Below are positions 16,228 through 20,377 of a stretch of 39,758 nucleotides of DNA, piece after piece; position 1 is the first letter of the stretch, and each line of letters begins with the position of its first letter. The notes beneath the pieces are model-generated. The model worked only from the letters and a program-made list of their open reading frames with translations. It did not search any database and was not told the DNA's origin. The stretch comes from a virus: UHGV virus genome UHGV-0465656. One strand, written 5' to 3'. A program made the position numbers and the translations under genes.

Positions 16228-18144
16228 ATGACAGACATTACAGCTAATGTGATTGTATCGATGCCTTCGCAACTCTTCACTATGGCTCGTTCTTTTAAAG
16301 CCGTAGCCAATGGAAAAATTTATATCGGTAAAATTGACACTGACCCGGTAAATCCCGAAAACCAGATTCAGGTTTATGTGGAGAACGAAGACGGCTCTCA
16401 CGTTCCTGTTTCGCAACCAATCATCATTAACGCTGCTGGTTACCCGGTATATAACGGACAGATTGCTAAGTTCGTAACTGTGCAATGCCATTCTATGGCT
16501 GTTTATGATGCGTATGGATCGCAGCAGTTCTATTTCCCTAATGTGCTGAAGTATGACCCTGATCAACTTTCTTCGCGCTTATCATCTGATGATGGTGCTT
16601 CTTATATTTCATTTAAGAAGCCTTATGCTGATGCTGCAACCAGAAAAGCATCTGACTACTTTAATCAGGAAATTAATGTAGATGACTTTGGTGCGTATGG
16701 CGATGCCTACTTATTGAACGGAGAAGATAACCTAAGCAAGCATGACGACACACACGCATTTCAGGCCGCTCTGATTGCTGCGTGGCGTGCAGGTGGTGTT
16801 AAAGTAGTAGCCACTCCGTGGAAAAGCTATTACATCGCCGGTAAAGTTTATGTGTTGGCTTCAGAATCTCCATCTGACATTGAAGAAACTAATTTCCCTA
16901 ATCGTCGGGTGCAAGTGATCGATTTTCAGGGCGCTCGCATCGTAGGCCGCGACGATACTTCCGACGAAAATAACGTATTCATTGAGACTGGTTATATAGC
17001 TTCTAGTGGTGCTATATCTTCTGTATTTGGAAAGTCTGGTGAAGAGTATCTAACCATAGGAACAATAATTCGCAATGCCACACTGATTAATTTCTATCAG
17101 GGGTTACGTTTGCGGAATCATGTATTTGGATGCGAGGTTACAGATATTGTTGGAGTAAATGTCCAGCAGTTGGTTTACACTCAGCGCTGCTTTTACTCTT
17201 TATTTCGCAATCTTCAGTGCAATGGTACATATACTACTGGTCTGCATCGCTATCACTTTACTGATGAATGCAACATTCAGCCATTAGTATCGGTTCACAC
17301 AGGAGAGTGTGATGTAGGTTTTAAGTTTGAAGGTGCGGTAGAGGCACTTACGCTGTTCAACTGTGGTATTGAAAGTTTTCGTACTCACGGTGTTTGGATT
17401 GCAGGTGCATATAACATCAAGTTTGATTCATGCTACATAGAGTCAAACGAAAGCAATGTGTATGGGGTTATAGCAACGAGCGCAAATAACATTACGCTGG
17501 ATAACTGCTGGATTTACGGTAGCAGTATGAAAATGTTTGGTGCATTCGACGACAATACCAACGTAAGAATTATGCCTAATAACCGTATTGGAGGAGGGGC
17601 AGTTTGGTGGGACCTTAACGAAGGGTCTCCGTACAACCTTTCCGACATTCACTGGCAAACAGATATAAAACCAGGCGGTACAACACTACCTGCTGCATCC
17701 GCTAAAGAGGCCAGCACAGTAGACCAGACTATAGTTTTCTACCACCCGGATTTAGGACTTAGTTCAGTTGTAGGGAAAGCCAAACAGACCAGTAAATACC
17801 ACCCGCAGCTTGTTAACGGCAAAATGAGTAACGGTAGCTCTGCTGCACATACAGTTGGCGCAAGTGTCTCTACAGAGGTTTCAGGTTCAGACACTAGAGC
17901 AAAATGGACAACGCAAATACAATACTCTGATACACAGCTTATTTTTTTAGCATTGAAGATAGATCATAACTTGGGGACATGGTTTTGGTTAGGTGTTGTG
18001 GCAGGAGATAAAGCGATGGTTATTTCAACATCTGATGAATCAAAGACTCCGGTTATAAGTAATGAAAATGGGTTTGTCGTAGTAGAGAGTCCGCTTCTTA
18101 TGACGCCAATAAATGTTCATGGTGGAGAAATAAGATTGCTATAG
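16228..18144 (+). CDS. Tailspike protein: conserved P22-type head-binding domain (aa 1-~110) fused to a divergent receptor-binding domain
   Basis: N-terminus [60 protein letters not shown] matches recalled P22 gp9; remainder unlike P22 and AT-richer. Confidence 0.9.
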
Positions 18145-18272: not shown

Positions 18273-19430
18273 TCACTCTACCTTTTCATCAATCCAGTCC
18301 GCCCACCACTGCATCATTTCTCTGCGCTTATCTAGATACTGAGCATGGTTGTAAATCCCACGCACAGATCCGCCGTTGGCATGTGCCAGTTGCACTTCAA
18401 TAGCATCAGCAGGCCATTCGTGCTCGTTCATAATCGTGCTGAATTCATGCCTGAATCCGTGACCGCTTTCCAGACCTTCATAGCCGATTTGTTTGATCAC
18501 AAGCAATACCGCGTTCTCGCAGATTGGCTTCTTCTTATCGTTGCGCCCGGCAAAAACAAACTCTGATACTGGTTTAGTGATGGAGCTTAGCGTAGTGAGA
18601 AGTTCAACCACCTGGTCTGACATAGGAACAACATGAATCTTGCGTCCCTTCATCACACTGGCGTCGATAGTGATAATCCTGTTTTCAAAATCGACGTTCT
18701 TCCATTGCATGGAACGAAGCTCTTTCGTTCTTAGGGCTGTGTAGCGTAAAACTTTGGTCGCAATGAGCGATACGATGCTTCCTGAAAATGTTGCCAGTGC
18801 TTTGTTGAATGCAGGGATCTGGTCTGCTGGAAGAAACGGGAAGTTCTTCTTGCGGTATCCTTTCATGGCGTCTGCAAGGTCAGGTGCCGGGTTATATTTA
18901 GCCCTTCCGGTGACAATAGCGTAACGGAAAACCTCGCCGCATCTTCTGCGGGCTTTGTTGGCTCGCTCCATTGCACCGCGATCTTCAAATCTGCGGATTA
19001 CTTCCAACAGTTGCATCGGCTCAATATCCTGAATCTCAAGACCGCCGATGATGGGTAAAATGTCGTCATCAAACATTTTTGCAAGTTCATTTGCATAGCC
19101 TACTGACCAGACTTGCTTCTTGTGCTCGTACCATTCCTTGTAAATGGCGCTAAAGGAATTGTTGTTAGACGAAGCCTTTTTCGCTTTTACCGGATCGATG
19201 CCAACCGAGATATCTTTCCTCGCGGTCCATGCTTTATCCCTTGCCTCCTGCAAAGTCATAAGTGGATATTTTCCGACGGTCAGGATTTTCTCCTTACCGT
19301 CAATCTTGTAGCGAAGCTGCCATACCTTTTTCCCGGATACAGGGACATAAAGGTACAGGCCATTACCATCGAGAAGGCGGTATGGTTTTTCTTTCGGCTT
19401 TGCTGCTTCAATCTGCTTAACGGTGAGCAT
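18273..19430 (-). CDS. int: Tyrosine integrase, P4-type
   Basis: N-terminus MLTVKQIEAAKPKEKPYRLLDGNGLYLYVPVSGKKVWQLRYKIDGKEK typical of P4-family integrases; start at second in-frame ATG (19430). Confidence 0.85.
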   Translation of the reverse strand: MLTVKQIEAAKPKEKPYRLLDGNGLYLYVPVSGKKVWQLRYKIDGKEKILTVGKYPLMTLQEARDKAWTARKDISVGIDPVKAKKASSNNNSFSAIYKEWYEHKKQVWSVGYANELAKMFDDDILPIIGGLEIQDIEPMQLLEVIRRFEDRGAMERANKARRRCGEVFRYAIVTGRAKYNPAPDLADAMKGYRKKNFPFLPADQIPAFNKALATFSGSIVSLIATKVLRYTALRTKELRSMQWKNVDFENRIITIDASVMKGRKIHVVPMSDQVVELLTTLSSITKPVSEFVFAGRNDKKKPICENAVLLVIKQIGYEGLESGHGFRHEFSTIMNEHEWPADAIEVQLAHANGGSVRGIYNHAQYLDKRREMMQWWADWIDEKVE

Positions 19431-19475
19431 GGGTAAAAATCCGGTGGGTAAAATTATTTTATCCACTTTTTACCC
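19431..19475. repeat. Arm-type repeats GGGTAAAA (19431..19438, 19446..19453) and TTTTACCC (19468..19475); further TTTTACCC copies at 19666..19673 and 19678..19685
   Basis: Five copies of an 8-mer or its reverse complement flanking the candidate att core. Confidence 0.5.
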
Positions 19476-19591
19476 GTCATGGAGTGCGGCTGTCAACGAT
19501 CTGACGCGAACCATTACGAACTGTGAATCTACGGAAGGCTTGATATTCAGGGGATTTTGCGGACTGGTACGGATGGGAGCGAACTGATAAA

Positions 19592-19606
19592 TGGTGTCCC
19601 CTGCAG
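19592..19606 (-). other. Candidate attP core: reverse complement CTGCAGGGGACACCA, matching the 3'-terminal 15 nt of tRNA-Arg (argW) as recalled
   Basis: Exact 15-mer in int-xis intergenic region flanked by arm-type repeats; argW sequence is from memory. Confidence 0.6.
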
Positions 19607-19679
19607 ACATCTACTTGAAGCGGCAGGGGATTGATTGGAATGGTGTTTTTTAGATGTGAGAAATATTTTACCCGCTATT

Positions 19680-19880
19680 TTACCCATTGGCGCGGCTTAA
19701 GAGCTTATTTTTGAATTCACAATGGTCACGATATAACCATCTTGCTCGCCCGTGGATAACTTTGGCTTTTGGCAGGTCGCCGGACTTAATCCTGTCATAG
19801 ATGAAGGTTTTACCGAAGCCAGTATCAGCCATGATGAATTTCAAATCAACCAGTGAATCAGGTTGTAGTTCGTGTTGCAT
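19680..19880 (-). CDS. xis: Excisionase / AlpA-family DNA-binding protein
   Basis: ..MADTGFGKTFIYDRIKSGDLPKAKVIHGRARW.. AlpA-like helix-turn-helix; upstream of int on same strand; GGAGA ahead of ATG. Confidence 0.7.
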   Translation of the reverse strand: MQHELQPDSLVDLKFIMADTGFGKTFIYDRIKSGDLPKAKVIHGRARWLYRDHCEFKNKLLSRANG

Positions 19881-19899
19881 GAGTGCTATCTCCGAATAG

Positions 19900-19915
19900 G
19901 GAATCGAACCTGCAA
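19900..19915 (-). other. tRNA-like T-arm fragment: reverse complement TTGCAGGTTCGATTCC
   Basis: 16-mer with canonical GGTTCGATTCC T-loop, immediately upstream of xis; not a complete tRNA. Confidence 0.5.
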
Positions 19916-19922
19916 ATCAGGT

Positions 19923-19945
19923 AATAAAAAACCGCCATCAGGCGG
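19923..19945 (-). terminator. Rho-independent terminator on minus strand (stem CCGCC/GGCGG, then U-run)
   Basis: Plus strand shows A6 then CCGCC-ATCA-GGCGG; stop codon of the small ORF lies in the loop. Confidence 0.65.
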
Positions 19946-20105
19946 CTTGGTGTTCTTTCAGTTCTTCAATTCGAATATTGGTTACGTCTGCATGTGCTAT
20001 CTGTGCCCATATCATCCAGTGGTCATAGCAGTCGTTGATGTCCTCTGCTTCGATAACTCTGTTGAATGGTTCTCCATTCCATTCTCCTGTGACTCGGAAG
20101 TGCAT
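19938..20105 (-). CDS. Small hypothetical protein (55 aa)
   Basis: Reverse-complement translation MHFRVTGEWNGEPFNRVIEAEDINDCYDHWMIWAQIAHADVTNIRIEELKEHQAA; below ORF-track cutoff. Confidence 0.4.
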   Translation of the reverse strand: MHFRVTGEWNGEPFNRVIEAEDINDCYDHWMIWAQIAHADVTNIRIEELKEHQAA

Positions 20106-20185
20106 TTATCATCTCCATAAAACAAAACTCGCCGTAGCGAGTTCAGATAAAAGAAATCCATCAATTGGTTAGGGTTTTTGTAATT

Positions 20186-20377
20186 CTACGAATTATGTTG
20201 TTTTTTAGCTTCATCTTTCCATTCATCAAAGGCAGTGTCTTTGTTCATGGTGCTGATATTGATCTTACGGTCAATATCATATACACGCCACTCACCGTTA
20301 GGCCTCTCTTCGCATCTAACTAAGTATGAATTGCCATTAATATCTATGCGTCTGTCTATTTGCATGAACATTTTCAA
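20186..20377 (-). CDS. Hypothetical protein (63 aa), AT-rich
   Basis: ORF track; no motif recognised. Confidence 0.4.
   Translation of the reverse strand: MKMFMQIDRRIDINGNSYLVRCEERPNGEWRVYDIDRKINISTMNKDTAFDEWKDEAKKQHNS

Follow-up and report, generated by a model that had tools for sequence, protein, structure and literature searches.

The integration module of UHGV-0465656

We analysed the region around the phage attachment site (attP) of virus genome UHGV-0465656, a stretch of 39,758 nucleotides (nt) referred to as the window, and in particular a short box in front of its excisionase gene xis that resembles the T loop of a tRNA-Arg gene. The whole window is a new mosaic P22-like coliphage carrying a known recombination module. 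Its int-attP-xis region of 2 kb shares 96-97% nucleotide identity with HF4s, N7, HK620, Sf6, IME10 and others, and it is practically certain that this region is the attP of the KplE1/HK620/Sf6 recombination module, which targets the tRNA gene argW. The assignment is based on the presence of every testable feature of the module, namely the integrase, TorI, the core, the argW site and the pentamers and arm repeats. The attP architecture is already annotated and experimentally studied, the window being one more carrier of it; attP itself adds nothing new, and the part for which no description was located is the box upstream of xis. The region comprises the following features:

18273..19430, minus strand: int, integrase gene of the IntS type, 385 amino acids; its ATG (19430..19428) abuts an arm repeat, and the HK620 int annotation maps here
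19053..19060, plus strand: sixth copy of the arm repeat GGGTAAAA, inside the int coding sequence; the HK620 equivalent (829-839) is annotated as an 'attP' repeat region
19431..19475: P' arm cluster, with GGGTAAAA on the plus strand at 19431-19438 and 19446-19453, and TTTTACCC at 19468-19475, which is GGGTAAAA on the minus strand
19464..19457, minus strand: degenerate repeat GGATAAAA with one mismatch, within the P' cluster
19453..19480, minus strand: sigma-70-like promoter ATGACG-16-AATAAT reading into int, corresponding to the published PintS that overlaps arm sites
19497..19584, minus strand: TorI-type pentamers GATCG (19501..19497), GTTCG (19511..19507), GTTCG (19521..19517), GTCCG (19564..19560), ATCCG (19574..19570) and GTTCG (19584..19580)
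19592..19606, minus strand: attP core CTGCAGGGGACACCA, the last 15 nt of argW; the plus strand reads TGGTGTCCCCTGCAG
19673..19666 and 19685..19678, minus strand: P arm repeats, two direct copies of GGGTAAAA; the HK620 attP repeat 1441-1463 maps here
19680..19880, minus strand: xis, TorI/HkaC recombination directionality factor, 66 amino acids, annotated torI in E. coli genomes
19893..19890, minus strand: Shine-Dalgarno sequence GGAG of xis
19897..19893, minus strand: second pentamer ATTCG, 12 nt downstream of the box pentamer and running into GGAG
19899..19912, minus strand: T-loop-like box CAGGTTCGATTCCC, with the invariant part GTTCGATT at 19909..19902
19915..19900, minus strand: 16-mer TTGCAGGTTCGATTCC overlapping the box; the plus strand reads GGAATCGAACCTGCAA
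19887..19925, minus strand: cII-dependent 'pI' promoter predicted in the HK620 and Sf6 records, with the predicted cII site TTACCTGATTTGC at 19924..19912
19929..19948, minus strand: intrinsic terminator just upstream of the box, at the mosaic boundary of the int-attP-xis module

Annotations of HK620 and Sf6 were mapped onto the window by offset (+18223 and +1492, respectively). The GenBank record of HK620 annotates an attP core and four attP repeat regions, which align with 19591-19606 and with the GGGTAAAA clusters; the same attP core is annotated in the Sf6 record and aligns to 19591-19606, and the CUS-3 record carries an annotated attL core. With A19591 included, the core comprises 16 nt, CTGCAGGGGACACCAT (19591..19606), as in the literature, where the defective K-12 prophage KplE1 has been described with this 16-nt core duplicated at argW and where the module was found to be conserved in HK620, Sf6 and CUS-3 (PMC2951348). 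The location of attP between int and xis, which places the two genes at opposite ends of the prophage, was reported for Sf6, HK620, KplE1 and Kapi1 (PMC8787464). KplE1 (CPS-53), HK620, Sf6, CUS-3 and Kapi1 share with the window the integrase and excisionase, the 16-nt core, the order of the att elements, the arm repeats, the TorI pentamers, the position of PintS and the integration site. No substantive difference was found, and the box upstream of xis is present in all these elements, too.

The int product contains the Pfam domains Arm-DNA-bind_3 (2.2e-25), Phage_int_M and Phage_integrase (1.6e-39), which are those of P4-type tyrosine integrases, and the gene is 96-97% identical at the nucleotide level to int of HK620, Sf6 and CUS-3. 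The xis product matches the 'Tor inhibition protein' of PDB entry 1Z4H over its full length (residues 1-66, E = 6.6e-43). As in phage lambda, a heterobivalent tyrosine integrase and a short core flanked by repeated arm-type sites are combined with a small winged-helix excisionase that binds direct repeats. The module differs from lambda, which has both genes on one side of attP, in that int and xis flank attP; furthermore, the excisionase sites are located on the int-proximal arm, a tRNA gene contributes its 3' end as the core, and an autoregulated promoter of its own serves int from within the arm (PMC2951348). P4-type integrases have the same domain layout (Arm-DNA-bind_3 plus catalytic domain) and likewise target tRNA 3' ends; the P4/AlpA/Vis systems differ insofar as TorI stays below every Pfam threshold here.

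The repeat GGGTAAAA occurs eight times in the window compared with 0.83 copies expected, a number reached in none of 100 shuffles, and six of the eight copies lie within 633 bp. All five copies reported in a previous reading of the DNA without database searches, hereafter the sequence-only reading (19431, 19446, 19468, 19666 and 19678), were retrieved, together with the further copy inside int (19053) and the one-mismatch copy at 19464..19457. HK620 attP repeats 1207-1232 and 1232-1253 map to the P' cluster, which is conserved in the divergent relatives L009 and L130 and whose repeats are predicted to be IntS arm-type sites, based on the description of such sites overlapping PintS (PMC2951348). 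The P arm repeats follow every xis homologue examined. The stop codon TAA of xis (19682..19680) lies inside the arm repeat 19685..19678 and the start of int abuts the repeat 19431-19438; both coding sequences are thus interlocked with the att arms. The promoter at 19480..19453 was the only sigma-70-like site detected by a promoter scan of positions 19300-20200, and HK620 carries an annotated 'prophage excision' promoter at this place. PintS is known to overlap attL and to be autoregulated, with IntS arm-type sites overlapping the promoter (PMC2951348). The pentamer array between core and int is conserved in relatives with the consensus A-GTTCG-C; in attL, five TorI sites organised in two blocks were described and mutated at GTTCG, GATCG and GTCCG (PMC2951348). 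During integration, IntS would recombine the core of 15-16 bp with the host gene for tRNA-Arg(CCU), guided by the GGGTAAAA arms on both sides, and in excision it would also be guided by TorI bound to the GTTCG-type pentamers between core and int.

The sequence-only reading had proposed an attP with the argW 3' end as core between int and xis, a proposal with which the HK620 and Sf6 core annotations and the junctions of relatives agree. The 75-nt argW sequence of this reading proved correct: each of the 5426 complete E. coli genomes has an annotated tRNA-Arg that it matches, with at least 99% identity in 5342 of them. As expected from this proposal, attL and attR of related lysogens map to the core. 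On the attL side, the similarity of the prophage-derived records CUS-3, phiv205-1, VT2phi_272 and 611R6 to the window ends at 19606, an edge at which tRNA-Arg or "attL" is annotated; on the attR side, prophage matches begin at about 19585-19592, those of E. coli chromosomes on the xis side at 19585-19586. One E. coli attR reads ...GATGTCTGCAGGGGACACCATTTATCA followed by host DNA, and an unoccupied argW (attB), which reads ...TTCCTGCAGGGGACACCAgatacc, shares exactly the 15 nt CTGCAGGGGACACCA with the window. This junction evidence for integration into argW with regeneration of the tRNA comes from close relatives and not from this exact phage.

The uninterrupted attP had further been taken as a sign of a free phage rather than a prophage junction. 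It indeed fits a phage genome better than the end of a prophage, although two prophages in tandem would produce an identical junction. Seventeen E. coli genome records carry an uninterrupted int-attP-xis region, including L005 (NZ_CP082824.1, 1535861-1542461), NZ_CP081786.1 and NZ_CP081778.1. In chromosomes, this is the expected appearance of a tandem prophage junction at argW, while records of 39,448 bp with the uninterrupted form look like phage genomes assembled as separate replicons.

An imperfect inverted repeat GATGTC/GGTGTC around TGCAGGG (19599-19611) would fit two integrase half-sites separated by a 7-bp overlap. The putative substructure of the core comprises the half-site GATGTC (19611..19606), the overlap TGCAGGG (19605..19599) and the inverted half-site GACACC (19598..19593), and strand exchange may accordingly take place at the junction of the T stem and the acceptor stem of argW, as judged from this repeat only. 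A 46-codon open reading frame (19547-19687, minus strand; hkaB in HK620, gene 17 in Sf6) extends across the core, and integration would divide it into two; it is probably not a gene. In E. coli ATCC 8739 (L006, NZ_CP043852.1, 2501-3941), the gene behind argW encodes another tyrosine recombinase (WP_001131474.1) and the junction reads ...GGGGACACCATTTACACC, indicating that other integrative elements use the same tRNA end.

A conserved T-loop-like box upstream of xis

In addition to the core, the window contains a second match to argW, the 16-mer in front of xis. Both pieces lie exactly where the sequence-only reading had placed them (19606..19592 and 19915..19900, minus strand), as do the five arm copies. 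The matches of 15 and 16 nt are located on the minus strand, 293 nt apart, and exceed the longest exact argW matches in 200 first-order Markov shuffles of the window (9-14 nt). Alignment with argW confirmed that the two pieces abut there, sharing 1 nt, and that the window keeps them on one strand and in argW order.

Homologues of xis with their flanks were collected from one genome per species, viral contigs and metagenome assemblies, which yielded 39 distinct xis proteins with identities down to 59%. A box of the form CAGGTTCGATT(C/T)CC precedes xis in 26 of these 39 variants and is missing from the other 13. The 14-nt box CAGGTTCGATTYCC is common to other lineages, while the full 16-nt match to argW is found only in the E. 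coli lineage. The TTG preceding the box is likewise confined to this lineage, the preceding base being A, C or T elsewhere, and even here the preceding bases are polymorphic, as some prophages (L217, L250) read TTTACAGG. The 16-nt identity with argW is thus composed of a 13-nt shared box and three lineage-specific bases. In 12 divergent lineages, GTTCGATT and a C two positions further on are invariant; the mean pairwise identity in these lineages amounts to 85% for the 14-nt box compared with 37% for its flanks and 52% for the 4-fold degenerate sites of xis.

The position of the box is nearly constant. The distance from the start of its GTTCG to the ATG of xis is 26-35 nt, in most cases 28-29 nt, and the box lies just upstream of the ribosome-binding site. 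Two tandem copies occur in L129, L132, L133 and L135, and three copies with 12-nt phasing in L014; in L016, L019 and L140 the box runs on into CCTG and thereby duplicates core bases. A second TorI-like pentamer (GTTCG, GTCCG, ATTCG, GACCG or xATCG) follows 11-13 nt downstream, mostly at 12 nt, in about nine of the 12 lineages. Prophages with the box belong to Escherichia, Citrobacter, Enterobacter, Serratia, Pantoea, Edwardsiella and Hafnia. It was also found in the KplE1-type attR loci L010 and L013 of other E. coli strains, and the KplE1 prophage of K-12 should carry the same box sequence. Positions 19880-19950 are the same in KplE1 and HK620 except for a single G/A difference. The box-bearing leader (…ACAGGTTCGATTTCCAAACCGGAGATGAAACCCATG) additionally precedes a different xis allele, MRELRDDSL, in the viral contigs L247, L268, L270 and L282, which points to recombination between leader and coding sequence. 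Loci without the box include those in which xis overlaps an upstream open reading frame (Klebsiella phage Chronis, L137 and Proteus-type relatives), and the leaders of L018 and L311 (...GCCTG|GAG...) resemble clean deletions; such natural variants suggest that loss of the box has a mild effect. No relocated box was detected within 2.5 kb upstream in the lineages lacking it.

The box corresponds to positions 50-62 of tRNA-Arg(CCU), a stretch shared by this tRNA in E. coli (GCAGG...CCTGC) and in Proteus (ACAGG...CCTGT); the Proteus-type T arm reads ACAGGTTCGATTCCTGT. The box differs from a tRNA T arm (GGTTCGAnTCC) in that most lineages lack the 3' strand of the stem and no other parts of the tRNA are present, and in that the single variable base within the box is the equivalent of the near-universal C61. 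Accordingly, ARAGORN predicted no tRNA gene in the window, and no Rfam family reached its own threshold when positions 19300-20200 were scanned permissively (STnc130, 23 bits compared with a threshold of 55). A CCTG...CAGG hairpin upstream of the box and a T stem downstream of it were considered; each was seen by eye only in a subset of lineages, and they were dropped as a general explanation. A search for xis relatives that target other tRNAs was also negative: it reached proteins of at least 62% identity, and all recovered loci possess the tRNA-Arg(CCU) core. No description of the box was found in the accessible literature, including a full-text search for GCAGGTTCGATTCC, although older papers on the module may mention it.

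A probable control element for the excisionase gene

The best overall explanation of these observations, which we hold with moderate confidence, is the known argW attP module together with a separate, selected box that probably controls xis. That the box is a selected element and not a split-off relic is likely, and it is probably a control element for the excisionase gene, as judged from its sequence and position. It would serve as a protein-binding site controlling the expression of xis. The most likely binder would be TorI itself, leading to autoregulation of xis; we propose this identity of the binder only tentatively. TorI is the first candidate because its published sites are of the GTTCG type, because the box pentamer has the same orientation and because a second pentamer follows 11-13 nt later. 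The GTTCG of the box indeed shares strand and orientation with the TorI sites of attL. TorI represses intS by binding to such sites (PMC2951348) and multimerises on arrays of sites (PMC2951348, PMC4989314). The promoter of torI, PtorI, is described as 'non-characterized' (PMC2951348), and within the accessible papers no report of torI autoregulation was found.

The box travels together with xis. In prophages of the E. coli lineage, the terminator preceding the box forms the mosaic boundary: one constant sequence, TTTTTATT(G/A)CCTGATTTGCAGG..., is found behind three terminators that differ, as do their upstream contexts, and other lambdoid phages share the window only from about 19918 onward. 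As the module moves between phages with different regulators, the protein reading the box is most likely encoded by the module or by the host. An operator for an excisionase in front of the gene that encodes it would have a parallel in P4, whose excisionase Vis also regulates the operon it belongs to.

Several observations weigh against this candidate control of xis by TorI. The sites in attL are GTTCG(C/T) with the consensus GTTCGC and a 10-nt repeat, whereas the box always reads GTTCGA and its tandem copies are spaced by 12-16 nt. No recognisable sigma-70 promoter that an operator could repress was detected by the promoter scan (19300-20200) between the terminator and xis, and the box is dispensable, as 13 of the 39 xis variants lack it, some having the terminator directly followed by the ribosome-binding site. 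Finally, the conserved part coincides with the T-arm stretch common to the tRNA-Arg(CCU) of E. coli and Proteus, so that the box may be linked to the tRNA instead of TorI. Other known sites provided no better assignment: the consensus sequences for sigma-32, sigma-54, sigma-E, IHF, the tor box and LexA, compared by eye, did not fit the conserved positions of the box.

Alternative explanations

The box could be an undescribed operator through which the module senses its own proteins, with the GTTCG recognition motif of the excisionase itself derived from the T loop of the target tRNA gene, which we consider possible but rather unlikely. In this case, one protein would read three T-loop-like sequences, namely the T loop of argW, the TTCGAT beside the core in relatives and the box upstream of xis. 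In the attL configuration (argW joined to 19580-19606), the GTTCG of the argW T loop lies 31 bp, approximately three helical turns, from the first TorI pentamer, and in relatives such as L140 the TTCGAT next to the core shows this spacing, too.

It is unlikely that the box is a core-type, attB 'B'-like half-site of the integrase, in which IntS would read the TTCGATTCC flanking the argW crossover and thereby be tethered near xis or repress it. The argW sequence that directly adjoins the crossover region on its left equals the box, TTCGAT is conserved left of the core in attP of most relatives, which suggests that something reads this sequence, and IntS autoregulates transcription by binding to att sites (PMC2951348). 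The apparent inverted repeat GATGTC/GGTGTC around the core, deduced from the sequence, however excludes TTCGAT, and attP of the E. coli lineage has lost TTCGAT beside the core, where it reads AGTAGATGTC, yet keeps the box. Moreover, direct tandem copies are unusual for core-type sites, and the box has neither an adjacent overlap nor a partner half-site.

An action of the box in the leader of the xis mRNA is similarly improbable. As a mimic of the T arm or as an anti-Shine-Dalgarno sequence (UUCC/GGAG), it would tune the translation or processing of transcripts that read through the terminator. The fixed orientation of the box and its nearly fixed distance to the ribosome-binding site are consistent with such a role, and the lack of a promoter between terminator and xis implies read-through transcripts containing the box. 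Pairing of UUCC with GGAG is possible in most lineages, with an extended helix in L016, and the Edwardsiella lineage possesses a perfect hairpin GACAGG-TTCGATTC-CCTGTC. A shared fold was nevertheless not detected, as RNAalifold returned 0 consensus pairs for the leaders of 16 divergent lineages, and the 3' strand of the T stem is missing or mismatched in most lineages. The equivalent of C61 is the sole variable base within the box, which is the opposite of what a T-arm fold requires, and pairing with the ribosome-binding site leaves the invariant GTTCGA unexplained.

The GenBank records of HK620 and Sf6 predict that the sequence belongs to a cII-activated promoter pI, with the initial TTGC of the 16-mer as the second half of the cII site, an assignment that we regard as very unlikely to explain the box. 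Sequences of the form TT(G/A)C-N5-TTGC are indeed found in the E. coli, Citrobacter and Enterobacter lineages. The repeats of cII/C1 sites in lambda and P22 are spaced by 6 nt. Here the spacing is 5 nt and the first repeat in the window is TTAC (TTAC-N5-TTGC); many box-bearing lineages lack the TTGC repeats, and it is the downstream box that stays conserved. In addition, the promoter scan revealed no -10 element or sigma-70-like hexamer pair, and a cII-activated promoter upstream of xis would be counterproductive, as it would produce excisionase during lysogenisation; the annotation of hkaC was made before the gene was known as xis.

The sequence-only reading had interpreted the T-arm piece as one half of a longer ancestral core, comprising the whole 3' half of argW, which was split by insertion of a xis cassette so that a neutral relic was left 293 bp from the 15-bp core. 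The exact adjacency of both pieces in argW agrees with this idea, as does the variable position of xis relative to att. In Proteus-type relatives (L162, 2495-4073; L029), whose xis is 64-68% identical, both genes are found next to each other on one side of att and converge (tRNA-Arg(CCT)-int-xis), showing that the position of xis changed during the evolution of the family. The idea did not withstand comparison with relatives, and we consider it highly improbable. In most of them, TGCAGGGGACACCA in attP is directly preceded on its left by (A/G)TTCGATGTA, in register with the T loop of the tRNA. TTCGAT is found in this register immediately left of TGCAGGGGAC in 11 of 27 xis variants with a readable core flank and with a one-base difference in a further 12; for instance, argW reads GTTCGATTCC|TGCAGGGG and L140 reads GTTCGATGTA|TGCAGGGG. 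In relatives, the core thus remains joined to the long stretch of tRNA homology, attP of the E. coli lineage having diverged at this place as described above, and the upstream piece is a second copy with signs of selection. Furthermore, the TTG with which the 16-mer begins is confined to the E. coli lineage and polymorphic even there, the extension of the box into CCTG in L016, L019 and L140 overlaps the core instead of complementing it, tandem copies exist in some lineages, and GTTCGATT is invariant where neutral sites are 37-52% identical. A chance resemblance deserves virtually no credence: GGTTCGAnTCC is very common throughout tRNA genes and unrelated coding sequences on viral contigs contain the 15-mer ACAGGTTCGATTYCC, too, but the longest match in 200 shuffles was 14 nt and the box recurs at a nearly fixed distance before xis in dozens of divergent loci.

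Genome context and implications

Directly upstream of int, the window encodes a tailspike of 638 amino acids with a P22-type N-terminal head-binding domain (16228-18144, plus strand). No O-antigen-modifying gene is located between tailspike and int, unlike in Sf6 (oac) and CUS-3 (neuO).

On the comparative evidence, the evolutionary story of a split core can be set aside. If true, an operator derived from the T loop would link the assembly of the excision complex to the autoregulation of xis. As the supply of excisionase decides on the exit of the prophage from the chromosome, a conserved candidate control element at this position is directly testable in E. coli K-12.

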